In this document: positions 42,909 through 59,682 of the stretch, piece by piece
How the letters are laid out: each line of letters starts with the position of its first letter
How positions within the stretch are numbered: position 1 is the first letter of the stretch
DNA from: a bacterium
GTDB taxonomy: Bacteria > Patescibacteriota > Minisyncoccia > Phycocordibacterales > Phycocordibacteraceae
DNA length: 64,000 nt
NCBI GenBank assembly: GCA_037200965.1
Contig: JBBCGK010000001.1
Span: 1 to 64,000 of the forward strand
Direction: 5' to 3'
The notes under the pieces: generated by a model
What the model was told of the DNA's origin: nothing
Seen by the model: the letters and a program-made list of their open reading frames with translations, nothing else
Databases searched by the model: none
Made by a program: the position numbers and the translations under genes

Positions 42909-42984
42909 GGGCCGTTAGCTCAGTTGGTAGAGCACCTCATTTGCAATGAGGGGGTCGCAGGTTCGAATCCTGTACGGTCCACCA
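42909..42984 (+). tRNA. tRNA-Ala(TGC) with encoded CCA
   Basis: Acceptor GGGCCGT/ACGGTCC with G3-U70 (Ala identity). D-arm GCTC-AGTTGGTAGAGC. Anticodon stem CCTCA/TGAGG with loop TTTGCAA (anticodon TGC). T-arm GCAGG-TTCGAAT-CCTGT. Discriminator A then CCA. Confidence 0.9.
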
Positions 42985-44515
42985 AATCTGATTTTTCAGC
43001 AACAACCTGCTGATTTATCTCGTAAATCCAACCTAATTTCGCGGTTCCAAAACCTGTATTTTTATCGTATCTAATTCCTTCGGGAAGGACGAGTTTTTGG
43101 AACCGCTTTTGGGCGTCTACCCCGATGCTGCTCCATGTGCGGGGCAGGTCTGAAATAAACGTGGTAGCGTAGGCTATTGCTGCTTCTATGTCGAGCTTAT
43201 CGAGGTTGTTTTCTCGAATGGTGATTTGCTTTGCGGCAATCTCATTGTCGGTCTTCTCGATAATCTCCTTGCCGAAGTCCTCGCTGACCGTGCCTTTGCG
43301 AATCATCTCTGCGTACTCGAACTTCTTTTGGCGCAGCTCCTCAAGTTCGGTTTGCTGCTGCTTGATAATATCGTCGAGTAATGAGGCATTGCTGCGCCAT
43401 ACTTCTACGACAATCTCGCTGAACAGCGCGAGGAACCCTTGCTTTGGAGTGATAGTGCCAAGCCATGCAAGAAAGTCTGTGTGCATCTTTTCTTGCGAAA
43501 TGTTCTTGGCATACATGGGGCACTGCTTATTGTGGCAATGGTAGTAAGAATAAACGCCGCCGTTGCCGCGCGGATGACTGCCACTCAACCCGATACTGCA
43601 AGCGGCGCAGCGTACGTCCCTTGTGAGCGGGAAATCGGGGTGATTCTTGAGCTTCTTGATGACCTTCGGAACCTTTCCTTTGCGGATAAGCTGTACCTGG
43701 ATAAACTCCTCGGGCGTAATCATCGCCTGGTGCTTACCCTCGACTTCTTTGCCCGTGAACGGATTGAGGATGATGCCCGCATAGAACTTATTGGAAAGAA
43801 TCTCGTCAATCTTCTGCGGATAGATTTTGCGGCCTCGCAGCGTCGTGAGACCCCATTGGTTTGCGAGCTTTGCCAGCTCGACGTTGCCACTCACTTTCTT
43901 CTCAAGACAGGCACGGAAAAGCGCCTGAATTATCGGGAAGCGCTTTGGGTCTGGGTCATCGGCTTCCGTCTTTTTCATGCCGCGCCTCTTGAATTGCTTG
44001 CAGGTATAGCCAAGCGGCGACTTCCAGGGATAGATACCCTGATTTATCTTCTCGCTCATACCATCAGAGCACTGCTGCTTCCTGATAGCGTTCTCATAGT
44101 CCGCTGATGCGGCCGCAACCGTCTCGACTAGTTTCTCAATCGGCTTATTGCCGATAGGTTCGGTAACGGAAAGAAGTGTCGTCCCATAACCGGACAACTT
44201 CTTTCTTATAAAGAAATGGTCTTCTGTGCTGCGAGAAAATCTGTTGACACGAAGCACTAGGAACGCATGAATCTGGCCGTTGTGCTTGCGGCAGAACTCG
44301 ATGGCTCTCAAGAACTCTTTTCGATTATTGAGCGATAGGTCTTTTGCTGATTGCCCTTCCTCTCGGAATACTTCGACGACTTCATAGCTGTTGCGCTCGC
44401 AATACCTCCTGCACTCTGCCTCCTGAAACTCCAAGCTCGTACCGTCAACCTGCTCGTCGGATGAGACGCGCACGTAGATGATTGCTTTTCTTGTTGTGGA
44501 AGTTTTCATGCTCAT
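42920..44515 (-). CDS. large serine recombinase (integrase)
   Basis: 531 aa. N-terminal resolvase catalytic domain (AIIYVRVSSDEQ), recombinase domain, Zn-ribbon (CAACS...CHNKQC) and a coiled-coil. The last ~19 codons (GFEPATPSLQMRCSTN) are read from tRNA-Ala sequence. Confidence 0.8.
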   Translation of the reverse strand: MSMKTSTTRKAIIYVRVSSDEQVDGTSLEFQEAECRRYCERNSYEVVEVFREEGQSAKDLSLNNRKEFLRAIEFCRKHNGQIHAFLVLRVNRFSRSTEDHFFIRKKLSGYGTTLLSVTEPIGNKPIEKLVETVAAASADYENAIRKQQCSDGMSEKINQGIYPWKSPLGYTCKQFKRRGMKKTEADDPDPKRFPIIQALFRACLEKKVSGNVELAKLANQWGLTTLRGRKIYPQKIDEILSNKFYAGIILNPFTGKEVEGKHQAMITPEEFIQVQLIRKGKVPKVIKKLKNHPDFPLTRDVRCAACSIGLSGSHPRGNGGVYSYYHCHNKQCPMYAKNISQEKMHTDFLAWLGTITPKQGFLALFSEIVVEVWRSNASLLDDIIKQQQTELEELRQKKFEYAEMIRKGTVSEDFGKEIIEKTDNEIAAKQITIRENNLDKLDIEAAIAYATTFISDLPRTWSSIGVDAQKRFQKLVLPEGIRYDKNTGFGTAKLGWIYEINQQVVAEKSDLVDRTGFEPATPSLQMRCSTN

Positions 44516-44520
44516 GTGTT

Positions 44521-45417
44521 TTATGTTAGGCGGTTCACTGCATCGCGGAGACCAGCATCGCTGACGTGCAGATAGCGGCTCGTGGTCTCCAGCTTTGAGT
44601 GGCCGAGAAGATTCTTGATAGCAAAGAGGTCAACACCGTTGGTCAAAAGCGAAACACTGAACGTATGACGCAGCGAGTGAACACCTACGTGCTCCTTCTT
44701 GATACCTGCTTTCTTGATGTAGTGCTTGATAAGGTGGTATACGCTGCCGGTGCTCAATCCATTGCCAAGCCGACTGATAAAGAGATATGGCACATCGGTC
44801 TCCGGCCGCTTTTCGAGATGCTTGCGCAATACCTCGACTACCACGCAGTTGAGCGGGATAGTGCGTTCTTTATCTCCCTTACCGCGCACCTTGATGGTGG
44901 GCTGCGCCGAATCAAGACTGACGCTGGTGAGCTTGAGCCCTACCAACTCGGAGAGACGGACACCCGTATTGAGGAATGTGATGACAATGGCGAGGTCGCG
45001 TGCAAGGTAAAACGGTGTTGCGGTGCGCTTTACGGCAGCAATCAGCGCTTCGTATTCTTCTTTGGTCAAATAGCTCGGCTCCTTGTGCGGTAGCTTCGGA
45101 GTCTCAACTTCGGCGGCAGGATTTATCGTAAGAGCATCAAACTGCACCAGGTATTTGAAAAAGGATTTTATTGAGGAGAGCTTGCGGGCGCGGGTTACGG
45201 CGCTGTTCGGCTTCTTGATGCCGTTATGCGTGAGTTCCGAGAGGAAGGCGCGGACATCATCACGCGATACTTTCTTGATATTGCTTTTGCCGCGCGACTC
45301 CAAAAACTCGGTGAACTTTTCCAAGTCAAGTCGATATGCAGCCATCGTACGCACCGATGCGTTTTTGTCGCTGTGAAGGTAATTGATGAATTGTGAGATA
45401 TAATTCTGCATAATCAT
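44521..45417 (-). CDS. tyrosine recombinase (XerC/XerD-like phage integrase family)
   Basis: 298 aa. N-terminal SAM-like domain. Catalytic R...HxxR...Y (HSLRHTF, LGHSKLETTSRYLH). Confidence 0.85.
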   Translation of the reverse strand: MIMQNYISQFINYLHSDKNASVRTMAAYRLDLEKFTEFLESRGKSNIKKVSRDDVRAFLSELTHNGIKKPNSAVTRARKLSSIKSFFKYLVQFDALTINPAAEVETPKLPHKEPSYLTKEEYEALIAAVKRTATPFYLARDLAIVITFLNTGVRLSELVGLKLTSVSLDSAQPTIKVRGKGDKERTIPLNCVVVEVLRKHLEKRPETDVPYLFISRLGNGLSTGSVYHLIKHYIKKAGIKKEHVGVHSLRHTFSVSLLTNGVDLFAIKNLLGHSKLETTSRYLHVSDAGLRDAVNRLT

Positions 45418-45737
45418 TTTTGAGGCGGAAACTGCTCGACAAGAGCTGCGGGCAAGCGTTCGACCAACTCCTTCCGTACCAAAAGCGCATCTTCATCACC
45501 GCGCGAATCAACGCCAAGCGTAATGCTCGTGCCGAAGCAGTGCACGCCACGCTGATTTATGCAGACGAATCCTGCGGCGAGCGCTAATGCTGGCGACTCG
45601 ACCACGCTGCTGTGCAATATTTCACTGTCGAACACGAGAGCTTTCCCTGCGGTAGTGACGACGTACTTCATGGGGATGCGTCCAGCGATGAAGTCCTCCC
45701 ATTCTTTTGTTTTTGATGTGTCGTATTCCATAGTCAT
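45414..45737 (-). CDS. hypothetical protein
   Basis: 107-aa ORF overlapping the tyrosine recombinase start by 4 nt (operon). Confidence 0.4.
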   Translation of the reverse strand: MTMEYDTSKTKEWEDFIAGRIPMKYVVTTAGKALVFDSEILHSSVVESPALALAAGFVCINQRGVHCFGTSITLGVDSRGDEDALLVRKELVERLPAALVEQFPPQK

Positions 45738-46000
45738 TTCTTGGGTAGCTTGCTATCGAGGTACAAGCCGGTGAGTCCTACGAGAGCAATGATGAGCGCC
45801 GCAAGCCATTCTTGGTCGAATCCCGATAGAAGCTCATCGAGATGCAGCCAGAGGAAGACAATCGCTCCGATGATGAACAGTGCTTTGCCCGTGTTCCAAA
45901 CTTCTCGCCAGGTTATCTTCGACCTTGTAGGGATACCGGCATCGGCCGTATTTTCCGCTAGCTTTTGCGTCCGTTTTCCAATGTGATTTTCGTTGCTCAT
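45734..46000 (-). CDS. small membrane protein (hypothetical)
   Basis: 88 aa with two TM helices. 4-nt overlaps on both sides. Confidence 0.4.
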   Translation of the reverse strand: MSNENHIGKRTQKLAENTADAGIPTRSKITWREVWNTGKALFIIGAIVFLWLHLDELLSGFDQEWLAALIIALVGLTGLYLDSKLPKK

Positions 46001-46188
46001 AAAATATTTTTGCTATTGCTGATAAATGCTTCGTACTCCTCACGTCGAATGAGCCATTTATTTCCAATGCGAAAGAAGCCTGGGATTTTTCCGGCTTCAA
46101 TCCATCGAAGTACCGTTGCGCGCGATACGTTCAAATCGGCAGCGACTTCAGATACATTTATCGTTTTACTTTGGATTTCTTCGCTCAT
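45997..46188 (-). CDS. excisionase/MerR-like helix-turn-helix DNA-binding protein
   Basis: 63 aa. HTH (VSEVAADLNVSRATVLRWIEAGKIPGFRIGNKWLI) typical of excisionase-family HTH proteins. First gene of the recombinase operon. Confidence 0.6.
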   Translation of the reverse strand: MSEEIQSKTINVSEVAADLNVSRATVLRWIEAGKIPGFFRIGNKWLIRREEYEAFISNSKNIL

Positions 46189-46593
46189 AACATTTAGTAG
46201 ATATTTACTTCGATACGATGATTCGTTTGTACGTGTTTGTTATCCACTTGACCTGCAACACGCACTTGGTATGATTTACTTGTAGTCGGATGCTGCTATT
46301 TGCATCATTTGAACGGCTGCTAATATCTATTTAGTGCCATTGCCCCGTGAGGGGTCTTTTTCGTTCTAGGCTTTCCATGTTGCTGCTCTGTTTCTTTCCA
46401 CGGGTATGGCACCTCACTTCCTCTCAATGACCTCTGCAAGTGGTGCATGGGTATGCAAGTGTCATAAAGAATGAACTCGCAGGGGTGTCATCTACTCCAT
46501 GCCCGCCGGATTCTGTGAAAACAAAAATCCGGTGGTGGTAGTTGTCGGTTTGTCCCTCGCACTGTGGGCGGGGACACCCTCACCATGTGGAAG

Positions 46594-46857
46594 TTATTTT
46601 GTCGAAACTTCCTTCTTGGGATTCAGGTAGCCCTCGACAATTTCATCAAGCAGCTCTGACATTGCCATTTCTTCTTCTGCTGCTCGCAGCTTCAACTTTT
46701 GTGCGTTTGATACTGACATACGAACTTGCCGTGTAATGCGCTTTTTACGTGCTTGCCAGCCACGCTTCATCGCATTACTCATCTGCTGCTGATAGTGCTG
46801 GTGCATTGCATCCTCTATTTGCTTCGTGAAATCTATTTTTTGTACCTTTGTCGACAT
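46594..46857 (-). CDS. hypothetical protein (possibly ribbon-helix-helix)
   Basis: 87-aa basic/acidic helical ORF in the island. Confidence 0.3.
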   Translation of the reverse strand: MSTKVQKIDFTKQIEDAMHQHYQQQMSNAMKRGWQARKKRITRQVRMSVSNAQKLKLRAAEEEMAMSELLDEIVEGYLNPKKEVSTK

Positions 46858-47177
46858 AGATTAGTTATTACGACTCTTATATCCTTCATCTCCCCGAAGA
46901 TGCCGGAATCTGAAACCTAGTAATGAACTCATAGCATCCGTCCAAACCTTCAATCAGTCGGGCTTTCACCTTCAGCATCGCCTCATCACGGCGACACTTT
47001 CCCGAACGTTTGTCTGACAAGGCTAGACGGCCAGTTATCGTTTGATGTGCAGGTGAAGTCCCCCGTCGCAGAGTCGTCAGGCGGAGCGGGGACTGGTATC
47101 TGCACACCAATCCGATTATTCGGCCGGTTTTTTATCGAGGACTCGCCGACGACCTCGTGCTTTGAGCTTGTAGAGAG

Positions 47178-47390
47178 CTACGCCTGCATTTCGGCTGGCG
47201 CGGGCAGCGTACTCACAAAGGGTGATGGCATTGCCTTGTCCTTTGCAGATACGAGACCTTTCTTTTGCCAACTATCAAATGCGAGATTTGCAGCGATGTA
47301 GAGTTCATCACGGACAGCCTCAACAGCCTCATCGGAGAGGAGGTTTGCTTCGTTGCCTAGAACTTTTTTGCATTGCGCGATGCTCAACAT
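47178..47390 (-). CDS. hypothetical protein
   Basis: 70-aa ORF in the island. Confidence 0.3.
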   Translation of the reverse strand: MLSIAQCKKVLGNEANLLSDEAVEAVRDELYIAANLAFDSWQKKGLVSAKDKAMPSPFVSTLPAPAEMQA

Positions 47391-47678
47391 AAGGGTTGGC
47401 GTCGGCGCGTTGTGAGCAGTTTCTAATTTGTGGAGCTGTTCAAAAGAAAAGACCCGCAGAAGAATCAGAAAACCACTGTGTAAACAGTGTCTTACTAGTT
47501 CCTATGCGGGGCGGAGTTGGTGCCTGGCTATCGAGAAGTCTCGATGTGCTCTGCGGCTAAAAAATTTGCCCTTGCCGTATTAGTTGACGTTGATATGCAA
47601 CGTGCTGACTGGGTACAGTTTAGTGCTGTAGACAATGAGACGCAAGCGTTTTTCAACAATGCTTGTGGAGAGCGACCA

Positions 47679-47709
47679 TGTCAATATGACAGTTTAGTCA
47701 ATTTTGTCA
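47679..47709 (+). promoter_or_regulatory. candidate operator: perfect palindrome TGTCAATATGACA plus a third TGTCA half-site
   Basis: TGTCA-ATA-TGACA at 47679-47691. A further inverted TGTCA sits at 47705-47709. Located ~60-90 bp upstream of the HTH gene that precedes the Type III R-M operon. Confidence 0.4.
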
Positions 47710-47767
47710 TAGTTTGATATACTATGACCATCGGCGTGAGGGATTATTATTAGACCGCCGCTTCAAT

Positions 47768-47968
47768 ATGGCTTCAAAGGACAAAAACTACCTGACGATT
47801 CAAGAAGTCGCCAAAAAATTGGAGGAGCGGCACTTCGACATCACCGAGCGAACGGTGTATCGCTATGTCCAAAAAGGAAAGATACGGGCAATCAAAATCG
47901 GCGGCTGGCGTATCGAGAAAAAAGATTTTGAAAAGTTCCTCGAAGAAAGCTCAAACACCAAGAAATAA
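47768..47968 (+). CDS. excisionase-family HTH DNA-binding protein (candidate controller of the R-M operon)
   Basis: ATG at 47768 (MASKDKNYLTIQEVAKKLE...RTVYRYVQKGKIRAIKIGGWRI). Stop is 4 nt before the mod start. Confidence 0.55.
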   Translation: MASKDKNYLTIQEVAKKLEERHFDITERTVYRYVQKGKIRAIKIGGWRIEKKDFEKFLEESSNTKK

Positions 47969-47972
47969 TTTT

Positions 47973-49769
47973 ATGAAGAACCAGCCAACAAAAGTAAATC
48001 TCGCCTCCGCAAATCTCTCCGAGGAGAAGCTGTTTGAGTTGCGGCGTATCCTTCCCGAAGCGTTCAGCGAAAACAAAATTGACTGGGAGAAGCTCCGCAC
48101 GGTTCTTGGCGACGCGGTGGATGCTCATATCGAGAAGTTCGGCTTTACCTGGGCGGGCAAGGGCAACGCCATCAAGAATGTTTTGATACCGAGCAAGGCC
48201 ACGCTCAACCCCGCTCCCGACGAGAGTGTGATGTTCGACGAGAGCCAGAATCTTTTTATCGAGGGCGACAACCTCGAAGTCTTGAAGCTTTTGCAAAAGG
48301 CGTACTTTGAGAAGGTGAAGATGATTTATATAGACCCGCCGTACAACACCGGCGGCGACTTCGTGTACAAGGACAACTTTACCGCACCGCTTGATAACTA
48401 CCTCCATCAGACCGGCCAGAAGAACGGCAACGGCGAGCATCTCACGACAAACAAGGAAACCAACGGCCGCTTCCACAGCGATTGGCTCTCAATGATGTAT
48501 CCGCGTCTCAAGCTCGCGTGGAATCTTTTGCGCGACGACGGCGTTATCTTCATCAGCATTGATGATAACGAGGTGCATCATCTCCGCATATTGCTAAATG
48601 AAGTGTTTGGCGAAGAAAACTTTATTGGTGAGTTTATCGTCGTACGTGCAGAAGGGGGTGGTTTAGCACATCAGTATGTGAAAGGACATGATTATCTGCT
48701 TGCATACGCAAAGTCTATTACAGACTTTGAACCACTCCGTCGCCCGAAAGATATTAGAGGCAAAATTATTGAGAAAGACGGCAAGGAATACTGGATAGAA
48801 GAAGACTGGCTCCGCCGAGAGTTCGGTAAGTACGGCACTCTCCTATACGAAGACATTGAGGAAGTGAAGGGGGCTAACAAGAAAGCGGAAATTGACGCTG
48901 GTTTGCAGAGCGGAGAGTATCAACTGATAAAGAAAAATGGCGGCCATATTGTTGGTCGACTTCGCCTAATTGAAGAAGATGGCTCCAAGTTCTACAGCAT
49001 CCTCAAACATCTTTCTGCGAGGGGAAACGATGATTTGCAGGAATTGGAAATGGGCAAACTCTTTGACTTTCCAAAGCCGGTATCTTTGCTGCGCGAACTC
49101 ATTTTGGGAGCCACGTTCTTTAGTAAGAATGACGGCGATATTATTCTCGACTTTTTCGCTGGCTCTGGTACCACGGCTCATGCTGTAATGGCACAAAATG
49201 CGGAAGATGGAGGCAATCGAAAGTGGATTGCTGTTCAACTACCGGAGAAGACCGAGAGCGATAGCGAAGCGTTCAAAGCCGGATACAAAACTATTGCCGA
49301 CCTTACTAAAGAACGTATACGCCGCGCCGCAAAGAAGCTAGAAAATACTGATGGCTTCAAAATCTTCAAGCTCGCAGCATCAAACTACCCCGAGAACGCT
49401 TTTGAGTTCGACCCAGATAAAACAGAAGACGAGAACAAAGCCGCCTTCGAGGACTACTTGAAGCACGCAAAGCGCGCCAAGCTTATTGACGACCTAGACG
49501 AGACGAGCGTCATCTACGAAAACATCGTCAAGGAAGGATTCTCGCTCAACTCCAAGATTCAGGAAGGCGTGCCAGGAAACAACAAGGTCTACACCATCAC
49601 CGACGGCGACCGGCAGTTTTCTATCTGCCTCGACCGTTCGATTGATGACACGACCGTAAAGAACATCACGGAGTGGGCTAAAGGAGCGACCTTTATCTGC
49701 TTCGATAATGCGCTCTCTGACAGCCAGAAAGCAAACCTCGGCCTCCACGTGGAGCTGAAAACGATATAA
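47973..49769 (+). CDS. mod: Type III restriction-modification system methyltransferase (Mod, N6-adenine)
   Basis: ATG at 47973 (MKNQPTKVNL). SAM motif and catalytic DPPY (IYIDPPYNTGGDF). Central variable (target-recognition) region. Motif I (FFAGSGTTAHA) after it, as in Mod enzymes. Confidence 0.85.
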   Translation: MKNQPTKVNLASANLSEEKLFELRRILPEAFSENKIDWEKLRTVLGDAVDAHIEKFGFTWAGKGNAIKNVLIPSKATLNPAPDESVMFDESQNLFIEGDNLEVLKLLQKAYFEKVKMIYIDPPYNTGGDFVYKDNFTAPLDNYLHQTGQKNGNGEHLTTNKETNGRFHSDWLSMMYPRLKLAWNLLRDDGVIFISIDDNEVHHLRILLNEVFGEENFIGEFIVVRAEGGGLAHQYVKGHDYLLAYAKSITDFEPLRRPKDIRGKIIEKDGKEYWIEEDWLRREFGKYGTLLYEDIEEVKGANKKAEIDAGLQSGEYQLIKKNGGHIVGRLRLIEEDGSKFYSILKHLSARGNDDLQELEMGKLFDFPKPVSLLRELILGATFFSKNDGDIILDFFAGSGTTAHAVMAQNAEDGGNRKWIAVQLPEKTESDSEAFKAGYKTIADLTKERIRRAAKKLENTDGFKIFKLAASNYPENAFEFDPDKTEDENKAAFEDYLKHAKRAKLIDDLDETSVIYENIVKEGFSLNSKIQEGVPGNNKVYTITDGDRQFSICLDRSIDDTTVKNITEWAKGATFICFDNALSDSQKANLGLHVELKTI

Positions 49770-49771
49770 CT

Positions 49772-52402
49772 ATGAAGTTCAAGTTTGACGCAAACCAAGA
49801 TTTTCAAATAAACGCAGTCAACGCCATCGTTGGCGTCTTTGAAGGTCAGCCGAAGCGTCAAAGTGTGGTAGTAAATGTGCCCGCACTTTCCGTTTCCGGC
49901 TCATTGCCGCTCCAAACTACATACGGCATCTATCCGAACGAGCTGACGCTTTCCGACGAGGAGGTGTTTGCCAACGTCTGGAAGATTCAAGAGCAAAACA
50001 AAATCGGCAATGGCGGCACGGTTGAGGAGTACGACTTTTCTATCGAGATGGAGACGGGTACGGGTAAGACGTATGTGTACCTTCGTACCGTCTTTGAACT
50101 CAACAAGCAATACGGATGGAAGAAGTTTATCGTTCTCGTGCCGTCCGTCGCCATCCGCGAGGGCGTCATCAAGACGCTCCAAATCACCAAAGACCACTTC
50201 GCCGAGCTGTACGACAACGTGCCGTACCGCTTCTACGAGTACCAGTCCAAGAACATCTCGCAGGTGAAGCGCTTTGCGGAATCCAGCAACCTGGAGATTA
50301 TGGTGATGACGGTAGGTGCGTTCAACAAGGACGCGAACGTGCTCTATGCCGCCCGCGACCAGATGCAGGGCGAGCAGCCTATCAGCTACATCCAGCGCAG
50401 CAACCCCGTCCTCATCCTCGACGAGCCGCAGAATATGGAAGGTGAAGCGACGAAGGAGGCGCTCAAGAACTTCAACGCGCTTGCACGCCTGCGATACTCC
50501 GCGACGCATCGCAATCCGTACAACCTCATGTACCAGCTCACGCCGTTCGATGCGTATCAGCTCGGCCTCGTAAAGAAGATTGAGGTGTATTCCGTTACGG
50601 ATGACGACACCGGCATCTCGCGCCCGTCGCTCAACCTCATCTCCGTTGAATCCGGCAAGGCGCTCAAGGCAAAGTTAGAGGCCATCGTGAAAGATGCCGA
50701 CGGCGCATTGAAGCGCAAGAAGCTCACCGTCAAACAGAACGACGACCTCGCGCAGAAGACCGGCAACGACGTATACGCCGGCTATATCGTGGACGAGCTT
50801 GACGCCGATGCGCCAGACCTCGGGCAGATTGGTAGGATTCGCTTTCGCAACAACGTGGAGATTCGCCAGGGTGAAGGCGTAGCAAACAACAACGAGCAAG
50901 TGATGCGCGAGCAGATTGAGCAGACCATCCGCCGCCACTTCGAGAAACGCAACCAGCTCCGCGATATGGGCATCAAGGTGCTCTCCCTCTTTTTCATAGA
51001 CAAGGTAGACAACTACGTTCAATCAGACGGGTTTATCCGCTCTGCGTTCATAGCCGAGTTCAATCGCCTCAAGAAAGACTATGGCGCTGACGGCATGGAC
51101 GTGGATACCGTCCACAAGGGATATTTCGCCAAGCGCGGCGAGGAGTATTTGGAGCGAGAGTCCAGCATCGCCGAGAACCAGGAAGCATACGAGCTGATTA
51201 TGAAGGACAAGGAGCGCCTGCTTTCCTTCGATGAGCCGACGGAGTTCATCTTCTCGCACTCCGCACTCAAGGAAGGATGGGACAACCCAAACATTTTCAA
51301 TATCTGCACCCTGCGCGAGACCGTTTCAGTCATCCGCAAGCGCCAGGAGATTGGCCGAGGTATGCGCCTCTGCGTCAATCAGGACGGAGAGCGTATTTTC
51401 TTGCGCAGCGTCAACCTGCTCTCCGTGATTGCAAACGAGAGCTATACGGAATACGTCTCATCGCTCCAGGGCGAATACGAGGAGGACGGTATCTACAAGT
51501 CTGCGCCGTTGCCGAACAATGCCAAGCGAAAGACCACGGTGAAGCTCAAGAAAGATTTTGATAAGGACACGGACTTTGCTGGTATCTGGGAACGCATCTC
51601 GAAGAAGACCCGCTATGTCGTGCAGGTTGATAGCGAGCGCGTCATCGAAGCGTCCGCAAAGCAGATTGCGAAGCTCCATCTCGCAAAGCCCAAGATGCGC
51701 GTCGAGCGCGCGGGCGTGAACATCGCGGCCGAAGGCATCACCGCAAACATCGTAGGCACCCGTGCCGAGGATTTGAGCCAGACCAAACGCACCATTGACC
51801 CTATCGAACTCATCAAAAACGAGACCAAGCTGACGCGCCACACGGTCGCGGAGATTTTGGCGAAAGCGGACAATACCGACTCCTTCCTCAAGAATCCCGA
51901 ACGCTTCTGCTTCGAGGCAACGCGCATCATCAAGGCCGAGCTGGTGAAGGATTACGTTTCCCAGATTCGCTATGAGGTACTGCCGGAGCAGTATGACCTC
52001 AAGCAGTTCGAGGACATCCCGAGCTACAAGGACGCGACGCACAAGGTGAACAACTCCATCTACGACGCCATCGTGTATGACTCCGACGTGGAGAAGAACT
52101 TTGCCGTCGCCCTCGATGCCGACGAGCGCGTGAAGCTCTTTATCAAGATGCCCAACTGGTTCAAGGTGAACACGCCTATCGGCGGCTACAATCCCGACTG
52201 GGCAATCGTAACGGCCAAGCGAGACCTCCAGGGCAACGAGGAGAAGGAGCGCGTGTATTTCGTGATTGAGACGAAGGGCGACATCTCCAACCTGCGCGAG
52301 AGCGAGGGACAAAAAATTGCTTCCGCGAAGAAGCACTTTGAAGTCATCGAGGTGAACTACAAGGAGGTCGAGAACTACGGGCAATTTGCTGAACAACTAT
52401 GA
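49772..52402 (+). CDS. res: Type III restriction enzyme Res subunit (SF2 helicase + endonuclease)
   Basis: 876 aa. Helicase motif I (ETGTGKTYVY), DEAH-like LILDEPQNM, C-terminal PD-(D/E)xK-like region. Starts 2 nt after mod. Confidence 0.85.
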   Translation: MKFKFDANQDFQINAVNAIVGVFEGQPKRQSVVVNVPALSVSGSLPLQTTYGIYPNELTLSDEEVFANVWKIQEQNKIGNGGTVEEYDFSIEMETGTGKTYVYLRTVFELNKQYGWKKFIVLVPSVAIREGVIKTLQITKDHFAELYDNVPYRFYEYQSKNISQVKRFAESSNLEIMVMTVGAFNKDANVLYAARDQMQGEQPISYIQRSNPVLILDEPQNMEGEATKEALKNFNALARLRYSATHRNPYNLMYQLTPFDAYQLGLVKKIEVYSVTDDDTGISRPSLNLISVESGKALKAKLEAIVKDADGALKRKKLTVKQNDDLAQKTGNDVYAGYIVDELDADAPDLGQIGRIRFRNNVEIRQGEGVANNNEQVMREQIEQTIRRHFEKRNQLRDMGIKVLSLFFIDKVDNYVQSDGFIRSAFIAEFNRLKKDYGADGMDVDTVHKGYFAKRGEEYLERESSIAENQEAYELIMKDKERLLSFDEPTEFIFSHSALKEGWDNPNIFNICTLRETVSVIRKRQEIGRGMRLCVNQDGERIFLRSVNLLSVIANESYTEYVSSLQGEYEEDGIYKSAPLPNNAKRKTTVKLKKDFDKDTDFAGIWERISKKTRYVVQVDSERVIEASAKQIAKLHLAKPKMRVERAGVNIAAEGITANIVGTRAEDLSQTKRTIDPIELIKNETKLTRHTVAEILAKADNTDSFLKNPERFCFEATRIIKAELVKDYVSQIRYEVLPEQYDLKQFEDIPSYKDATHKVNNSIYDAIVYDSDVEKNFAVALDADERVKLFIKMPNWFKVNTPIGGYNPDWAIVTAKRDLQGNEEKERVYFVIETKGDISNLRESEGQKIASAKKHFEVIEVNYKEVENYGQFAEQL

Positions 52403-55400
52403 ACTTCTATGGACTCTTTATCGGGATAGACAGATATGCCTCTCCAAGTATCAACTGGTTGAGTTGTGCAAAGCGTGATGCAGTAGCACTTCATGCGCTC
52501 TTTACTGACACACTTGGCGGCAGCACGAAACTACTTACAGATGAACAAGCCACGCGCCCTACCATTGAAGCGGAGTTTGCAGAACTGGCTAAATGCAAAG
52601 AGGATGACGTGGTAGTCATAACCTTCTCTGGACACGGTACTACTACGCACGAGTTAGTTGTCCATGATGCGGACAGAAGTAATTTGCCAGGCATGTGCAT
52701 CCCGCTTTCAGTTGTAAGCGAGTGGGTTGCAAAAATACCAGCAAAAAAGTTGCTGTTTATCTTGGATTGCTGCTTTTCTGGCGGCATGGGTGCGAAAGCT
52801 CTCCAGGTTGATGTTGTCTCACGTGATATAACTTCAGCCGATGATTTGCTCAAACAACTTTCTGGAGATGGACGGTTGATTTTGACCGCATCGCTTGCCA
52901 CAGAACCTGCTTGGGAGAACCAAAAGCTCGGCCACGGCTTTCTCACATATCATCTGCTGACAGCAATGCAGGGTACCGAAGAAGTGAAAAAGGCAGGTAA
53001 GATTACTGCGTACCGCTTACTTGAATACGTAACGGAAAGAGTGGTAGATGACGCAAAAAAGATTGGTAAAGAGCAACATCCAACTCTCCGCGGCACGATG
53101 GACGGCTCGTTGACGTTTCCTGTATTTACTCCTGGCACGCTATACGCCGCCGCGTTTCCAGAGAGAACAAAAGCAAAAGTTAGTGCAGATATTCAATCGC
53201 TTGAACCCTATGGATTCCCCGAGACCATACTAAAAGCATGGGCGGGTGCGATACCATCGCTCAACCAGTTGCAGATAGACGCTATCAACGACTTCGGGCT
53301 ACTTGATAGTGAGCACTTGGTTGTTTCCGCACCAACATCCTCTGGTAAGACAATGGTTGGTGAACTTGCTGCCATCAGTGGCGCACTGAAACGTCGGAGA
53401 GCACTTTTCTTATTTCCTTTGAAGGCGCTTGTAAATGACAAGCTGCGCCATTTCAATAGCACATACGGTGCGTTTGGTCTGAAAACCATCAAAGCAACTG
53501 GCGAGAGTACAAGCGATGACATGCTCCCTTTGATGCGTGGCCAGTATGATATTTGCTTGATGACGTATGAGAAGTTTTCTGCGCTCGTTCTAGGCTACCC
53601 GCATATCCTTGAGCAAATCGGAACCATTGTAGTTGATGAGGTGCAGATGATTGCCGATGAATCACGTGGAGTGAATCTTGAGTTTATCCTTACACTATTG
53701 AGGATGCGACGTAGAGAAGGAGCTGAACCGCAGCTCATTGCTCTTTCTGCCGTAATTGGTGATACCAACGGACTGGAGCGATGGCTTGGCGGCCGACTGC
53801 TGCGCAGAACAGAGCGTCCCGTGCCACTTGATGAAGGAATTATCAAAGCCGACGGCAGCTTCCGCTATATCGAGTCTGACACTGGAACGGAGAAGACCGA
53901 TACGTCTTATATTATCCCTGAATCACGCAAAGGTTCGAGCCAAGACTTGATTATCCCTCTAGTGCGAAAATTGGTCGGTGAAGGTAAAAGCGTGATTGTA
54001 TTCCGTGAGACACGGGGTGAAGCGCGCGGCTGCGCCCTCTACCTCGCAAGCTCTCTTGGATTGCCGGCCGCACAAGTTGCCCTCGATACATTGCCGAATA
54101 GCGACCCGTCCATCTCATCCAACAAGTTGCGAGAGGCACTTGGAGGCGGTATCGCTTTTCATATATCGGATTTGGATACCGAGGAGCGTCTTGTTGTAGA
54201 GGAACAATTTAGAGCCAGACCTACAGCGCTCAAAGTGATAGCCGCGACCACGACTCTTGCAATGGGAGTGAACACCCCTGCGGAGGCGGTTATCATTGCC
54301 GGTCTCACACATCCAGGAGACCATCCGTATTCAGTTGCAGAGTACAAAAACATCATCGGTCGTGCTGGACGACTTGGCTTCTCGCAGCGTGGCACTTCCT
54401 ACGTTGTCGCAATGAATGGTAGCGATGAACACCACATTTGGAATAGCTACGTTCTTGCATCCCCAGAAGACCTGAACTCCCGCTTTTTGGCAGACCATAC
54501 AGACCCGCGCACATTGATTGTGAGAGTTTTGATAGCTGCTGGTCGTGCGGGTTTGCCAGCACAGCAGATAGTTGAGTTCTTGGAGGAGAGCTTTGGCGTG
54601 TTCCAGCAGAAAGCAATAAACGCTAGCTGGAAATGGGATGAGCAACAGCTTCTGCAAGCTCTCGCTGACTTGAATGCGCACGGATTGGTTGAGAAGGATA
54701 AGGATGATGTATACCACCTCACAGAACTCGGAAAGCTGGCGGGTGTTTCTGGCGTTGAGGTGGAGTCAGTCATTCGAGCTGTGAACGCTTTAAGCGGTCT
54801 GCCGACCACAGACATCAACGACCCTGCACTCATTACGCTCTCGCAAGCAACCGCGGAGCTTGACCAGGTATTATTCCCGATGAATAAGAAAAGCACGCAA
54901 AAAGAACCGCAGGCATGGGCTACTGAAATACGAAATCAAAATGTCCCTACTCAAATAACACAGGAACTTGGGCGCAACACCTCGGATACAACGCAACAAA
55001 CATTGCGCGCTAAAAAAGCAGTAGCAAGTCTACTTTGGATAACTGACCGGCCGCTGAATGAAGTAGAGACAACTATGACACAGTTTGGCGGTGGGCTAGA
55101 TGGTGCCGCTGGTGCAATTCGTGGTGTTGCTGCACGAACGTGTGATGTGCTGCCTACGATTGCTCGCATTGCCGAACTGCTGAATCCTGGTTTTGATTTG
55201 AGCAATCGAGTATCACGACTGTTGATACGGCTTGAGATTGGCGTACCGGCCGCTGGTGTTGAACTCGGCTCTCGCATCGGCAGAATACTTACTCGTGGTG
55301 ATTATCTCAACCTTCTCAAAGCAGGCATCTCTACTGCTGAACAATTTGAGACAGCAGACGAGAAAGTCCTTTTGTCGTGCCTCGGAGACAGCACCGATAA

Positions 55401-55491
55401 ACTTGAACAAGCAAAGCTCGCATTAGAAAACACCTCACAGGAAGAACCTGCTCCGATGATGCCACCGATTTTACCAGCCTATGAAGGATAA
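52399..55491 (+). CDS. fusion protein: N-terminal caspase-like (peptidase C14/CHAT-like) domain + Ski2/Hel308/Lhr-like SF2 helicase + C-terminal helical region
   Basis: 1030 aa. Caspase-like dyad: GIDRY, catalytic His in FSGHG, catalytic Cys in LDCCFSGG. Helicase motifs I APTSSGKT, II VVDEVQMI, III SAV, VI IIGRAGRLG. Overlaps the res stop by 4 nt (ATGA). Confidence 0.7.
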   Translation: MNFYGLFIGIDRYASPSINWLSCAKRDAVALHALFTDTLGGSTKLLTDEQATRPTIEAEFAELAKCKEDDVVVITFSGHGTTTHELVVHDADRSNLPGMCIPLSVVSEWVAKIPAKKLLFILDCCFSGGMGAKALQVDVVSRDITSADDLLKQLSGDGRLILTASLATEPAWENQKLGHGFLTYHLLTAMQGTEEVKKAGKITAYRLLEYVTERVVDDAKKIGKEQHPTLRGTMDGSLTFPVFTPGTLYAAAFPERTKAKVSADIQSLEPYGFPETILKAWAGAIPSLNQLQIDAINDFGLLDSEHLVVSAPTSSGKTMVGELAAISGALKRRRALFLFPLKALVNDKLRHFNSTYGAFGLKTIKATGESTSDDMLPLMRGQYDICLMTYEKFSALVLGYPHILEQIGTIVVDEVQMIADESRGVNLEFILTLLRMRRREGAEPQLIALSAVIGDTNGLERWLGGRLLRRTERPVPLDEGIIKADGSFRYIESDTGTEKTDTSYIIPESRKGSSQDLIIPLVRKLVGEGKSVIVFRETRGEARGCALYLASSLGLPAAQVALDTLPNSDPSISSNKLREALGGGIAFHISDLDTEERLVVEEQFRARPTALKVIAATTTLAMGVNTPAEAVIIAGLTHPGDHPYSVAEYKNIIGRAGRLGFSQRGTSYVVAMNGSDEHHIWNSYVLASPEDLNSRFLADHTDPRTLIVRVLIAAGRAGLPAQQIVEFLEESFGVFQQKAINASWKWDEQQLLQALADLNAHGLVEKDKDDVYHLTELGKLAGVSGVEVESVIRAVNALSGLPTTDINDPALITLSQATAELDQVLFPMNKKSTQKEPQAWATEIRNQNVPTQITQELGRNTSDTTQQTLRAKKAVASLLWITDRPLNEVETTMTQFGGGLDGAAGAIRGVAARTCDVLPTIARIAELLNPGFDLSNRVSRLLIRLEIGVPAAGVELGSRIGRILTRGDYLNLLKAGISTAEQFETADEKVLLSCLGDSTDKLEQAKLALENTSQEEPAPMMPPILPAYEG

Positions 55492-56320
55492 AAATATGAT
55501 GAAAAAACGAACAGCAGTAATACTCATCGTCGTCGCTATCGTGGCAACATACGCTGTCATCATGTGGGCGTATTACGGAGACCCTTCATGGTCTAGCAGC
55601 AGCGACACCGCAAGCAGCACCGAGATACCGGCAGACTGCAACGTGCTCGCGTTCAACCTCAACGGAGAGATAGCAACATACCTGCCGCAAGATAGTATCA
55701 GTGAGACCGATTCCGTCTCATCGGCCGATATTCTCGATGGTCTCAAGCTGGCGAAGGAGAACCCGCAAATAAAGGCGGTGCTGCTTTCGGTTGATTCCGG
55801 CGGCGGGAGCGTCGTAGCCGGTGAGGAGATAGCCAACGGCTTCAAGGCGCTCGGCAAGCCCTCTGCGGCGGTTATCCGCGACCTGGGAGCTTCTGCCGCA
55901 TACTGGGCGGCTACCGGCGCAGGCAGGATATTTGCCTCGAAGGTGTCGGATGTGGGTAGTATCGGCATCACCGCCTCATACCTCGACAATACCGTTGCGA
56001 ACGCAAAGGACGGTCTCACGCCCGTGGCAATCGTCTCTGCGCCGTATAAGAACGAGGGCGACCCCGACTTTCCGCTCACGGCAGCAGGCAAGGCGGACAT
56101 ACTCGCATCTATCAAGAAAGACCATGAGGTTTTCGTGGACGAAGTTGCAGCAAACCGGAAGCTCGACCGCAGCAAGGTAGCAGCGCTTGCAGATGGCCGA
56201 ACGTATGTTGGCACCGACGCCGTGGACAACGGACTGATTGACGGCATCGGCAGCATTCCCGAAGCGACCGACTATCTTACTCAACAGATTGGTGAGTCTG
56301 CGCAGGTGTGCTGGTACTAA
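55481..56320 (+). CDS. SppA/S49-family serine peptidase (signal-peptide-peptidase-like), membrane-anchored
   Basis: 279 aa. N-terminal TM. S49 core with Ser in GASAAYW and downstream Lys. Start overlaps the upstream gene's end by 11 nt. Confidence 0.65.
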   Translation: MKDKNMMKKRTAVILIVVAIVATYAVIMWAYYGDPSWSSSSDTASSTEIPADCNVLAFNLNGEIATYLPQDSISETDSVSSADILDGLKLAKENPQIKAVLLSVDSGGGSVVAGEEIANGFKALGKPSAAVIRDLGASAAYWAATGAGRIFASKVSDVGSIGITASYLDNTVANAKDGLTPVAIVSAPYKNEGDPDFPLTAAGKADILASIKKDHEVFVDEVAANRKLDRSKVAALADGRTYVGTDAVDNGLIDGIGSIPEATDYLTQQIGESAQVCWY

Positions 56321-56972
56321 CCGACGCGCGCAGCATCGTCATATCTTTCTCGCTCATTTTTCCGGCCATCGCCCGATTGAGAATGTTCATCATAAAAGTT
56401 GCCGTCTCGCGCTTGTCGGCGTTTGATTTGATATTCAGAGACTCCTTGCTGTGCGCAGCGCGCATCACATAGTTGAACACGTTTAGCACGTAGTTGCGGC
56501 GCTTCACGATGATGTCATCGTCGTAGCTGCTTTCATCGTCCTGGTCGCGCTTGAGAATATCCATCGCATCGTTGAGCAGCTCGCCTGCAAGGGTGCTCGC
56601 GCCCATCTCTAGCGTCTGCGCATCCGGCACGATGGCGGCATTTTGCTCATCCCGCACCTTGATGATTTGCCGCAGCTCCCGCTGCTCCTGCTTGTAGCCC
56701 TGCTCGGCGAGCAGCTCCGCGTCCCACTTCTTGCGCCACAGGCGATATTGCTTCTCCCAGGGAAAGAAGGTAAACGGGGCGATGGACTTGTTGAAATCGT
56801 TGATGATACGGATGGCGCTGCGGTCTGGTTCCTTGCGGCGCTCGGCCAGGTAGAAGGCGCGGAAGGACGGGAGAAGCTCCCGAAGCTCACCGACCCTCTG
56901 GTATTTGCCGTCAAAGCCCTCGTAGAAGGAGAAGATGGGCTTGGTATCGTTTTGTGGTGTTGATGTGTCCAT
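56277..56972 (-). CDS. hypothetical protein
   Basis: Start taken at the internal ATG 56972 (MDTSTPQND...) to avoid overlapping the recombinase remnant. Acidic helical protein, no family. Confidence 0.4.
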   Translation of the reverse strand: MDTSTPQNDTKPIFSFYEGFDGKYQRVGELRELLPSFRAFYLAERRKEPDRSAIRIINDFNKSIAPFTFFPWEKQYRLWRKKWDAELLAEQGYKQEQRELRQIIKVRDEQNAAIVPDAQTLEMGASTLAGELLNDAMDILKRDQDDESSYDDDIIVKRRNYVLNVFNYVMRAAHSKESLNIKSNADKRETATFMMNILNRAMAGKMSEKDMTMLRASVSTSTPAQTHQSVE

Positions 56973-56988
56973 AGGGGCTATAATGAGG

Positions 56989-58554
56989 CTATATCGCAGC
57001 GTGCTGGGGCTGGAGAATGGCTTGCCACTCCTGCAATCCTTCAAGGACTTGGTTCCAGTTCGCGCGGATGTAGTCCACATCGTCGGAGTTGGTGGTAGCT
57101 AACTCCTCAAACAGCCTGGTTTTACTTAGCTTATTTCCGGTTCTATAACCCTCATTTTTGGCATACTCCAATTTGCGCTCAAAGAGGAAGAAAAAGAGCC
57201 GGTGCTGACCATGCACATCGAACAAATCCCAAGTAGATACGGGGCTTTTTAGCATTCCCATACTCTTATCAAGGGCGGTTCTATAAGGTATTCCTAAGTC
57301 CTTGCTGATGAGGGTCGTGCCCTCCATTTTCTCAAGCTCGCGTGCGCTGTCTTCTATCTGAGCTTCATACGTGCGCACTACAGCCTCAGAATTGGCCTTA
57401 CGCGCCATCTCTGACAGCTCCTTGAGCTTCTTCTTCAACTCCTCCTTTCGCTGCTCCTGAAGGTAATCCTGCCATTCAAATATTCTTGACTCCTGTGCCC
57501 ATATTTTATCGAACACGCTAGAAGCAACACCAGTAACGGCAGGCTTGAGTCGGTTGCGTGCGAGCACCTTCTTGAAATCATCCTCGACATCCTTCTTCCG
57601 AAGGGTCTTGAAGTAGAGCTCACACTTCCTGTTCTGGCAGAAGTAGTATTCGTACTTCTTCTTGCTGCGGCTCGTTGATGGAGCTGCTGAAAGATGGCCA
57701 TCACATAGGGCGCAGGTAATGAGGCCACGCAGTGGGAATTGGTCTGAGGTGTCTTTGCGAGGCTTGGCCTTTGCTTCGTCCTTTCCAAGCCGTGCCTGAA
57801 TGCGAAGGAAGGTGTCAGGTTTAATAAGACCTGTGTGCTGTCCGTCTCTTCGAGACACGCCCCAGGGGAGGTATTCAATGAATCCTGCAAAGAAAGGGTC
57901 TTCAAGCATTCCTGAAACATGGTCTAAGCATCGAACAGGCTCCTTACCAGCCCACATACCTCGCTCCACCATAAAGTTGGCGACATCAATCTTTCTTGGC
58001 AAATTGCCGCTCGCGAATCCTTCAAGAGCAGGCTTGATTACCTCGTAGCCAAGCTTATTCGGCTGCGCAACCTTTCCACGGCCAAGAATGAACACCATGT
58101 CATACCCGCGCTTCTTACTGAATGGCCAGTAGCCTGCGAGCAGCCGAGCTTCCATCTTGTTGATTACCTGTTCCGCGTTCTGCTCACGGTCGAGTTCAGC
58201 CTGCGCTGCGAGTACACGCTCAACGAATCTTCCCGAAGGGGAGTCCTCGAAGTTGAAGTTAAGGCAGAGCGGAATAATGTCGCACTCAGTGAACGCTTCC
58301 ATCAGCGCCATATGAAACTTCAGGTCGCGTGCAAAGCGTTTGAGGTCGTCGAAGACAACAACGAACTTCTTATCGCGGTTTGCACGAACATACGCCAATA
58401 ACTCTCGCATGCTTGGACGGCGCATGAAGTCGCCACCTCCTGTGTACGTGTCTATGAAGGACCGGTCATAGGGTATACCAAGCTCTGTAAGTCGAATCTT
58501 GCATCGCGTCTCCTGACTTGATTGGCCACTGCCATTCAGCTCCTGGCTCGAGTT
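56989..58554 (-). pseudogene. large serine recombinase remnant lacking the N-terminal catalytic region
   Basis: ORF 56989-58425 begins mid-resolvase domain (…RPSMRELLAYVRANRDKKFVVVFDDLKRFARDL). The frame continues upstream to 58554 (…IDTYTGGDF) with no YxRVS catalytic-serine motif, then hits a stop and an AT-rich junction. C-terminal recombinase and Zn-ribbon regions are intact. Confidence 0.6.
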
Positions 58555-58894
58555 TTAAATATTTTAAGGATCTAGACGCCTTTAGAAAATATGCACGGAA
58601 TATTGAAAGCATTGATCGTATTGATAAAGAACTTGAGGATAAAGTAGAAAAAGTAACCAAAGAGATAAAAGCTCGAGTTAAGCAGCAGCATCCTGATATG
58701 TAATTGAATCTTGATATGAATTTTTACGACAAATACATCCTCCCTAAATACCTCAATTGGACGATGAGAAAGAAGGATTTCGCGGTGATGTGATTCACCA
58801 CAATAAACCGTCCAGGGCTGGCACGAAGACGAGCAATCGTCCGAATGCCAGCCCTTTCCCATTTCTGATAGAATATCACTCAACCAACTCCAAT

Positions 58895-59311
58895 ATGACA
58901 ATTGTTGAAAAAGTTAAAGAACTTAACTTGCCGTTCGGACAATACGTCGTTATCGGGAGCGGCCTCTTGGAAGCTCTCGGTATCCGCAAAGCGCAGGATA
59001 TCGATGTTGCCGTCCTGCCCAACCTGTATGACCGGTTGCGCGCGAGCGGGGAATGGGGAGAGGAAGAGAAATACGGCAAGATCTTTCTCGTGCGGGAAGG
59101 CATCGAGATAAGTCCGAAGACTTCCTGGGATGAATACACGACCACTACGGAGGAAGCCATAGCTTCGGCGATGATAATCGACGGCGTTCCCTTTATGAGC
59201 CCTAAGGAGCTTATAAAATTTAAGACGGCTATGGGGCGCGAGCTGGATTTCAGGGATATCGATTTATTGAACGAGTATCTCGAGAAGCATAGGGATCAGG
59301 AGCCTTCATAG
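58895..59311 (+). CDS. nucleotidyltransferase-fold protein (ANT(2'')/Lnu-like small-molecule nucleotidyltransferase candidate)
   Basis: ATG at 58895. YVVIGSGLLEALGIRKAQDIDVAV matches the G[SG]...DxD pol-beta-type nucleotidyltransferase signature. 138 aa. Confidence 0.5.
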   Translation: MTIVEKVKELNLPFGQYVVIGSGLLEALGIRKAQDIDVAVLPNLYDRLRASGEWGEEEKYGKIFLVREGIEISPKTSWDEYTTTTEEAIASAMIIDGVPFMSPKELIKFKTAMGRELDFRDIDLLNEYLEKHRDQEPS

Positions 59312-59384
59312 GCGGTCTTTCTCCGAGGAAGAATATGCGGTAGTATTGCCATAGGCAGCAGCGTATTGTGCCAAGGAGGCGCAC

Positions 59385-59627
59385 ATGACTCGTCAAGAAA
59401 CTTCGGAGGCTGAACATGCTCAAGCAAAGAAGGCGAGACGCGAATTCTATCTATACAGCGTCCTGCCGTGCTTGGCGGTATTTGCTCTCTCAACGCTCTT
59501 CGCGCACGTGAACTTGTTTGGCGGACGCGATCTGTGGGGAGTCCTCTCGGTCCTTTCGGGCGCCCTGGGATTGGCGTGGGCGACGTTTCCGCTTTGGTTT
59601 CGTGCCGCATCAGGCATGAGCCGGTAG
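59385..59627 (+). CDS. small membrane protein (hypothetical)
   Basis: 80 aa with two TM helices. Confidence 0.35.
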   Translation: MTRQETSEAEHAQAKKARREFYLYSVLPCLAVFALSTLFAHVNLFGGRDLWGVLSVLSGALGLAWATFPLWFRAASGMSR

Positions 59628-59682
59628 AAAAGCAGGGCCGTGCGGGATATTCCCCGCACGGCCTATCGCGTTCGAGCTCCAC

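Follow-up and report, generated by a model that had tools for sequence, protein, structure and literature searches.

An S49 peptidase of the SppA type carried as mobile cargo behind restriction-modification operons in Patescibacteria

Signal-peptide peptidases of the SppA type are normally taken for housekeeping enzymes, and one that sits at the end of a restriction-modification (R-M) operon raises the question of what it is doing there. The locus considered here lies in a stretch of 64,000 nucleotides (nt), called the window below, which comprises positions 1 to 64,000 of contig JBBCGK010000001.1 (assembly GCA_037200965.1) from a member of the Phycocordibacteraceae within the Patescibacteriota. 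In this window, the gene for a membrane-anchored S49 peptidase (55496..56320, + strand) stands last behind a Type III R-M system and a caspase-helicase fusion, inside a ~16.7-kb integrated island. An earlier note on this DNA had suspected that the protease belongs to the defence module and is not a housekeeping gene in this setting; the genomic association behind that suspicion is borne out by the present analysis, and the mechanisms proposed for it are not. The answer reached here is that this clade of S49 peptidases constitutes, in Patescibacteria, mobile cargo joined to R-M operons of many kinds at their 3' end, with unusual genetics and an ordinary enzyme.

The setting of the gene is that of a compact operon, as the earlier note had recognized. 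Its head is a small HTH_17 (excisionase/AlpA-like) regulator (47517..47717, + strand), so labelled by Pfam in a public gene call (L006). There follow, on the same strand, the Type III methyltransferase Mod (47865..49769; PADLOC MTase_III, 2.3e-164; Pfam N6_N4_Mtase; public calls start at ~47973), the Type III restriction subunit Res (49772..52402; PADLOC REase_III, 2.5e-240; Pfam ResIII and RE_endonuc) and, according to Pfam and NCBIfam, a fusion of 1030 amino acids (aa) between a caspase-like Peptidase_C14 domain and a DEAD/Helicase_C module, i.e., a Hel308-like superfamily 2 (SF2) helicase (52399..55491). The genes upstream of S49 all share one strand, with reported gaps of -4 to +4 nt. At the last junction, the TAA stop of the caspase-helicase gene occupies 55489-55491, and the longest open reading frame (ORF) for S49 begins inside that gene, at 55481 (279 aa). 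The ATG at 55496, which lies 4 nt beyond the stop and gives a protein of 274 aa, is more likely to be the start, because public gene calls give 274 aa, the N-termini of homologues align to MMKKR.../MKKK..., and a Shine-Dalgarno-like AAGGA motif read from the sequence (55484..55488, + strand) lies 7 nt before it, within the last codons of the upstream gene. With that start, the junction would be one of stop and then restart. The earlier note had described translational coupling through an 11-nt overlap; the tight spacing stands, and the overlap, which needs the ATG at 55481, probably does not. On account of the spacing, S49 is almost certainly transcribed together with HTH_17, Mod, Res and the caspase-helicase, as the final cistron of their operon. 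This conclusion is drawn from spacing by itself, since a promoter and terminator scan of 46800-58700 was uninformative: the scan returned 10 promoter-like sites against 9.4 expected from shuffled sequence, none informative near the S49 junction, and no terminator signal exceeding shuffled expectation. The S49 gene is under purifying selection, the ratio of non-synonymous to synonymous divergence (dN/dS) against a 78%-identical homologue (L001) being ~0.09, with dS near saturation.

The arrangement is not confined to the window. A single-protein scan of genome contigs gave no matches, and an alignment-based scan found homologues; ORFs were then called in 134 loci and clustered, with R-M and recombinase genes labelled by profiles built from the clusters. 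Nearly all S49 homologues come from metagenome-assembled genomes of Patescibacteria and from metagenomes, and the clade patterns, which were strict, picked out only ~35 species-representative genomes of Patescibacteria. The earlier note had proposed to check whether close homologues stand downstream of R-M or helicase genes, and they do. The closest distinct one (L001/L002; 78-80% identical) closes a Type I operon ordered hsdM, ClpP-like gene, hsdS, 268-aa gene, hsdR and then S49, its start lying 1 nt past hsdR, and a copy that is 56% identical (L011) overlaps by 4 nt with the hsdR gene of a second, related Type I operon. In L019 and L055, S49 comes after yet other HsdR genes of Type I. On the Type III side, L056 carries Mod (55%), Res (80%) and caspase-helicase (74%) followed by an S49 that is 54-59% identical to the window copy, and S49 lies directly behind Type III-like Mod and Res genes in L018 and L077 (one Res cluster), L061 and L070, amounting to at least three further Res clusters.

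The linkage is also polarized. Within the window's own clade, whose members end in ...CWY, R-M genes lie within 5 kb upstream of S49 at 14 of 23 non-redundant loci, in every case on the S49 strand, and within 5 kb downstream at 1 of 19 (Fisher p=2e-4). For the wider Patescibacterial clade, the corresponding figures are 5 of 22 upstream and 3 of 25 downstream, and for archaeal and other non-Patescibacterial outgroups they are 0 of 12 on either side. Over the full ~10-kb upstream flank, R-M genes occur at 16 of the loci having at least 3 kb upstream. A majority of the window's clade therefore adjoins defence genes, which is the pattern expected under guilt by association, in what is a small sample of related loci scored with self-built profiles. 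An independent and cruder test, in which the largest flanking ORF of 44 long-flank loci was matched to Pfam, gave ResIII seven times upstream versus three times downstream and HSDR_N three times versus none; the signal over the whole family is thus modest, and the effect is concentrated in the window's clade. Besides S49, no gene family is common to more than 20 of 135 loci, the largest being the Mod methyltransferase, and hence no conserved housekeeping synteny was found, an arrangement that the earlier note had named among the signs against its own suspicion. The island as a whole is, moreover, missing from a close relative.

Several of these loci have neighbourhoods that deserve mention in their own right. 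The ClpP-like gene between hsdM and hsdS of L001 (1645-2190; also in L002) encodes a 181-aa ClpP-family protein (PF00574, E=2.2e-17), such that the Type I operon of L001 holds two different ClpP-superfamily proteases, S49 included; in L011 the same slot is filled by a DUF4145 gene, and the 268-aa gene between hsdS and hsdR is conserved in both operons. A second recurrent neighbour is DUF2726, a restriction-endonuclease-like family found directly downstream of S49 in L018 (10885-11295) and L060 (1205-1621) and two genes further on in L008 (8856-9398). Four loci labelled as archaeal (Methanosarcinales; L042, L043, L046 and L047) have a different order, namely a ~167-aa gene, S49, a ~105-aa gene and ribonucleotide reductase, with no R-M neighbours; unlike the Patescibacterial clade, these look housekeeping.

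If S49 travels with R-M operons, does it belong to any one of them? A comparison of four related elements (the window, L001, L011 and L138) indicates that it does not. All four share arms made up of a tyrosine integrase (53-70%), a 70-aa gene, HTH_17 and a 231-aa gene termed p231 (67-74%), and between those arms the genes differ. A gene of ~60 aa, c4, is a further arm gene of this island family, absent from the window itself. Aligned with L001, the window shows DNA homology only from 55532 onwards, a position inside S49, and a comparison of the cargo/S49 junction at five loci brought out no conserved DNA motif beyond purine-rich, Shine-Dalgarno-like stretches. With the Type I-linked copy, the window S49 shares 78-80% identity, and with the L056 copy that stands behind a homologous Res and caspase-helicase, only 54-59%; the partners of S49 have been shuffled among operons. 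Mod and Res are complete without S49, and L138 carries a homologous Mod-Res-caspase/helicase operon, 77-79% identical and with the same right arm, from which S49 is absent, so that S49 is not a defining component of the Type III system. Its slot in L138 (10129-10818) holds an unrelated 229-aa protein with CxxC...CxxC and RNHVVH motifs and a weak match to HEPN_RiboL-PSP (E=0.012, below the cutoff). A further backbone, composed of a serine recombinase, DUF5659 and HTH_17 (L008-L010), has S49 in its cargo region as well, and S49 is found on PrimPol/serine-recombinase elements, which, together with the tyrosine integrase/p231 and serine recombinase/DUF5659 types, makes at least three backbones. 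The slot of the HTH_17 regulator is likewise occupied in L009, L137 and L138. Because S49 is replaceable in L138, is present on several backbones, and can be missing where the caspase-helicase is present, it is optional mobile cargo, and neither a core gene of the element nor a fixed housekeeping gene here.

The caspase-helicase calls for separate consideration, since the earlier note had tied the protease to that gene in particular and had proposed effector processing or a membrane-disrupting, abortive function. According to such a scheme, S49 would process or activate the caspase-helicase or an R-M subunit, or would itself serve as a membrane effector of abortive infection. The tight coupling of the two genes and their identical order in L056 are what this scheme would predict, and the genes that fill the slot elsewhere, weakly HEPN-like in L138 and HEPN_AbiU2-like in L136, resemble typical abortive-infection effectors. 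However, the caspase-helicase family has more than 1700 matches, full-length and at least 59% identical among the 120 best matches listed, with taxon labels of Elusimicrobiota, Omnitrophica, Proteobacteria, Acidobacteriota and Patescibacteria. Of four contexts studied besides the window, three (L135, L136/137 and L138) have the caspase-helicase without S49, which follows it in L056 only, and S49 for its part also stands behind unrelated Type I and Type III systems from which a caspase-helicase is absent. S49 is therefore not a dedicated partner of the caspase-helicase, and the exclusive tie falls away. Apart from this, the G+C content of the caspase-helicase gene at third codon positions (GC3) is 0.46, unlike that of its neighbours and sharply different from the 0.76 of the adjacent Res. 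The caspase-helicase is also found behind Type III R-M systems, and in L136/137 it stands alone after HTH_17 on an element with the serine recombinase/DUF5659 backbone, followed by the HEPN_AbiU2-like gene.

That the S49 gene lies within an insertion is evident from a close relative (L146; UvrB 90% identical) that has the same backbone and in which tRNA-Ala and yceG are only 66 bp apart. In an alignment of the window with L146, nucleotide homology ends at 42982 and restarts at 59681, at yceG, and therefore the ~16.7 kb in between (42985..59680), S49 included, is an insertion; the earlier placement of the operon within an island is thereby confirmed. Low G+C content (0.46-0.55 in the island as against ~0.59-0.61 in its flanks) and the presence of recombinases agree with this delimitation. 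The island contains a serine recombinase, the tyrosine integrase, small genes, the HTH_17-Mod-Res-caspase/helicase-S49 operon, p231 and a truncated recombinase. Its organization recalls the hotspots of P2/P4-like prophages and their satellites, in which conserved arms flank a slot that exchanges unrelated defence cassettes. Here, the arms run from the tyrosine integrase to HTH_17 on one side and comprise c4/p231 on the other, and the cassettes are Type I, Type III, caspase-helicase or weakly HEPN-like. In contrast to the P2/P4 type, the elements reside in Patescibacteria, lack recognizable phage structural genes, and repeatedly have a membrane protease at the 3' end of what they carry, something that, to our knowledge, has not been described for P2/P4-like hotspots.

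The same organization bears on the main rival explanation, in which S49 is a hitchhiking housekeeping SppA that only clears signal peptides, a function that the island supplies or merely carries in reduced genomes, and in which its place behind R-M genes reflects a cargo hotspot between an HTH_17 arm and an S49/p231 arm with no link to defence. The upstream cargo is indeed swapped while S49 and p231 stay, and the onset of L001 homology at S49 is the pattern of a hotspot flank. Furthermore, the enzyme resembles an ordinary 36K-type SppA, its C-terminal CW(Y) signature is shared with many other Patescibacterial SppAs, the protein has no PADLOC match, and no further S49 homologue was found within the 64-kb window. 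What speaks against a hitchhiker is that S49 can be replaced within the same backbone (by the weakly HEPN-like gene of L138), that it occurs in the cargo region of no fewer than three backbones, and that some loci have defence-type genes on both sides of it (DUF2726 in L018 and L060; L008). The absence of the entire island from L146 and the number of species-representative genomes with strict matches likewise fit an accessory gene. Taken together, a mere hitchhiker seems possible and on the doubtful side.

As to the protein itself, the earlier description as an S49 peptidase with an N-terminal transmembrane segment and a GASAAYW serine region proved correct. Pfam Peptidase_S49 (PF01343) matches residues 122-269 with E=2.2e-28 and 99.6 bits, against a gathering score of 24.9, and phmmer searches of the PDB return SppA structures with E values of 1.6e-18 to 3.3e-16. 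The putative catalytic Ser133 within GASAAYW (codon 55892..55894) aligns with the catalytic serines of Bacillus subtilis SppA (Ser147) and Escherichia coli SppA, and the putative general base Lys185 (codon 56048..56050) with the K199A position of 3RST; both residues are invariant in 38 homologues, as are Cys48 (codon 55637..55639) and Cys272 (codon 56309-56311). An AlphaFold2 (AF2) model derived from the homologue alignment has a mean predicted local distance difference test score (pLDDT) of 75.6, with a helix over residues 4-27, a low-confidence or disordered linker over 29-41, and a pLDDT of 95-98 across the last 20 residues. The best Foldseek matches of that model are B. subtilis SppA structures 4KWB and 3RST (E 2e-18 to 1e-16; TM-score 0.74-0.79, normalized to the target). 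By domain, predicted dyad and modelled fold, the protein is a member of family S49, and it is probably active as a Ser/Lys-dyad protease; with 135 bits against a cutoff of 155.45 for the NCBIfam SppA equivalog TIGR00706, it ranks by its sequence as a family member and not as a certified functional equivalent of a characterized SppA.

A quite different origin was also considered, namely that the gene is a prophage remnant encoding an S49/ClpP-related head-maturation protease. The best PHROG match is phrog_53, 'head maturation protease' (E=8.8e-45); the window protein and lambda gpC-like proteases belong to one superfamily. Terminase or Bro-N genes are found close to some relatives, L140 among them. 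Unlike the phage enzymes, however, the window protein is membrane-anchored, as are all relatives checked, and it lacks a neighbourhood of capsid genes: Pfam, PHROGs and gene calls yielded no capsid, portal or scaffold genes in the island. With 28.8 bits, the match to the NCBIfam profile Clp_rel_HeadMat (NF045542) stays well under the cutoff of 120. A head-maturation function is, on this evidence, scarcely credible. A phage origin of S49 was likewise considered and rejected, as IMG/VR holds two full-length copies of the Patescibacterial type only, the other viral S49 proteins being at most 36% identical and matching over the core only. Independently of this, one S49 that is 57% identical (P0034; L140-L142, equivalent to L075) was seen on dozens of contigs of 10-50 kb, between a UvrD-like helicase block and genes for a PKD-domain protein, Terminase_6C and a DNA methylase; its locus may be a Patescibacterial prophage or phage-like element that carries a membrane-anchored S49.

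The single N-terminal hydrophobic span (residues ~4-27, 55505..55576; hydropathy peak 2.67) is preceded by a KKR motif and followed by a Ser/Thr-rich linker. Because of the positive-inside KKR, that linker and the invariant Cys48 and Cys272, which may form a disulfide, the most likely topology is N-in/C-out, as in known SppAs, with the catalytic domain on the outer face of the membrane. With the active site predicted to lie outside, direct action on Mod, Res or the caspase-helicase would be unlikely. The same prediction tells against the effector processing that the earlier note had proposed, as the cytoplasmic proteins would be out of reach, and nothing points to membrane disruption or an abortive function in a family without pore-forming or lytic features. 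In light of this topology and of the independent distribution of the caspase-helicase, a dedicated effector or activator role looks improbable.

Topology bears similarly on another conceivable function, restriction alleviation, in which S49 would degrade a restriction subunit when an R-M system enters an unmethylated host. In E. coli, ClpXP degrades HsdR in restriction alleviation. It would fit this role that S49 is found, in Type I and Type III operons alike, specifically at the end where the nuclease subunit is encoded, and a ClpP-like gene also lies within the Type I operon of L001. The catalytic domain is nevertheless predicted to be outside the cell, SppA-type enzymes are without an ATPase partner that could unfold cytoplasmic proteins, and no precedent is known for restriction alleviation by an enzyme of this type. 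Such a role is judged very unlikely.

Comparison with characterized signal-peptide peptidases places the window protein closer to the single-domain type. B. subtilis SppA (36K-type; 3RST, 4KWB) has the same single N-terminal anchor, S49 fold and aligned Ser/Lys dyad, and falls into a similar size class. The two differ in several respects: they are only ~23-24% identical; the window protein is ~35 residues shorter at its C-terminus, with 19 residues after the core versus ~54 in 4KWB; it ends in the invariant Cys-Trp-Tyr, with the invariant Cys48 as its putative partner, the ...CW(Y) ending being found throughout the Patescibacterial S49 clade; it has no SppI/YteJ-like neighbour; and it is encoded on a mobile island behind an R-M operon, whereas the B. 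subtilis gene belongs to a sigma-W stress operon. The C-terminal peptide that B. subtilis SppA processes itself, and which fills the active site in 4KWB, thus appears to be mostly missing from the window protein. A self-processed C-terminal propeptide of the B. subtilis kind was considered and rejected, as the protein ends 19 residues past the aligned core. E. coli SppA (protease IV, 67K; 3BEZ/3BF0) is the best PDB sequence match (E=1.6e-18) and conserves the catalytic serine region; it is, however, a 618-aa tandem-domain protein whose dyad is split between the domains, whereas the window protein has a single domain and scores 104.8 bits against a cutoff of 311 for NCBIfam SppA_67K.

The explanation that we favour, with about equal chances of being right or wrong, is that S49 is a mobile accessory protease for protection or maintenance of the envelope, co-mobilized and co-expressed with cytoplasmic, DNA-targeting defence. 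An envelope-protective role is preferred because B. subtilis SppA, itself a protease of the envelope whose protective function is documented, confers resistance to lantibiotics and a cationic peptide while having little role in secretion (PMC7568657). S49 might work at the membrane surface as an oligomeric, self-compartmentalized protease that degrades peptides or unfolded segments. Candidate substrates would include remnant signal peptides and, as for B. subtilis SppA, membrane-active antimicrobial peptides, as well as the membrane-inserting proteins of incoming phages or elements. Protection at the level of the envelope would then travel with the genes for DNA-targeting defence in the cytoplasm while acting independently of them.

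A number of observations weigh against this account of an envelope-protective protease. The R-M profiles behind the counts were built from proteins of the same loci, which are not phylogenetically independent, and the polarized linkage, moderately interesting as it is, rests on roughly two dozen of them. S49 is dispensable, given its absence from the otherwise homologous operon of L138, and the linkage could arise from a cargo hotspot or from transcriptional convenience, with no shared function. PADLOC-DB v2 contains no family that matches the S49 protein at E<=0.01, and full-text literature searches turned up no paper that links S49/SppA to R-M, defence islands or phage defence. Lastly, the TIGR00706 score falls short of its cutoff, and the orientation of the protein is predicted from sequence features. 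The enzyme, in short, is ordinary, and what appears to be undescribed is its recurrent, polarized linkage to R-M on mobile elements of Patescibacteria.

A bolder version of the envelope-protective account would make the S49 clade a new mobile component of envelope-level immunity, forming part of a two-layer cassette that guards surface and cytoplasm in ultra-small episymbionts. The outward-facing protease would destroy membrane-inserting proteins or peptides that come from incoming phages, competing elements or host-derived antimicrobials, and selection would have favoured its movement as the final cistron of operons for R-M and other DNA-targeting defence. We regard this stronger proposal as tentative and rather unlikely. 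If the linkage does turn out to be functional, a membrane-surface protease would be added to the defence repertoire, and there would be a handle on envelope protection in bacteria of the Candidate Phyla Radiation (CPR), which largely lack clustered regularly interspaced short palindromic repeats (CRISPR) and live attached to other cells. If it does not, the locus would offer a clean case of a 'housekeeping-type' gene turned accessory and island-borne in reduced genomes. S49 would then also be a useful marker for Patescibacterial integrative elements with a swappable defence slot.

The remaining features of the island concern its arms and its site of insertion. To the right of S49, p231 (56277..56972, - strand) is convergent with it, the 3' ends overlapping by 44 nt; the gene is conserved (67-74% identity in L001, L011 and L138; dN/dS 0.06-0.12) and has no match in Pfam, NCBIfam, PHROGs or PADLOC. 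Two small helical families, c4 (~60 aa) and c19 (~75 aa), are usually found after S49 or after the gene that replaces it (L001 8253-8592; L011 10809-10997; L056 10809-11166; L138 10823-10978). Neither has a Pfam match or is present in the window, and c4 has further occurrences close to a terminase gene in L140 and on the left-arm side of the L008 and L136 elements. Beyond p231 lies a large serine recombinase (56989..58425, - strand) that is probably truncated at its 5' end and without the strand bearing the catalytic serine, as its match to the Resolvase profile sets in only at position 48; upstream of its start (58426-58760), the frame is closed by a stop codon, with AT-rich DNA beyond it. 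The island may, on this side, have been immobilized.

The left end of the island is marked by a serine recombinase (42920-44515, - strand) and the tyrosine integrase (44521-45417, - strand), next to a tRNA-Ala(TGC) detected by ARAGORN (42909..42984, + strand). No att-type direct repeat of the tRNA-Ala 3' end was found at the right edge, the sole 14-mer repeat lying in another tRNA, and the boundaries are for this reason set by the empty site of L146. The host flanks carry uvrB, a histidine kinase, uvrA, uvrC and ddl on one side and yceG and tRNAs on the other, and the nearest UvrB relatives (82-90% identical) are labelled Paceibacterota, Parcubacteria or Patescibacteria, which places the host in the Paceibacterota. 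Relative to its counterpart in L146 (13738-13811), which shares the strand of yceG, the tRNA-Ala(TGC) of the window is inverted, and L146 has between ddl and the tRNA a gene for a 206-aa S-adenosylmethionine (SAM)-methyltransferase that is absent from the window; the inversion and the extra gene together suggest repeated rearrangement or insertion at tRNA-Ala.

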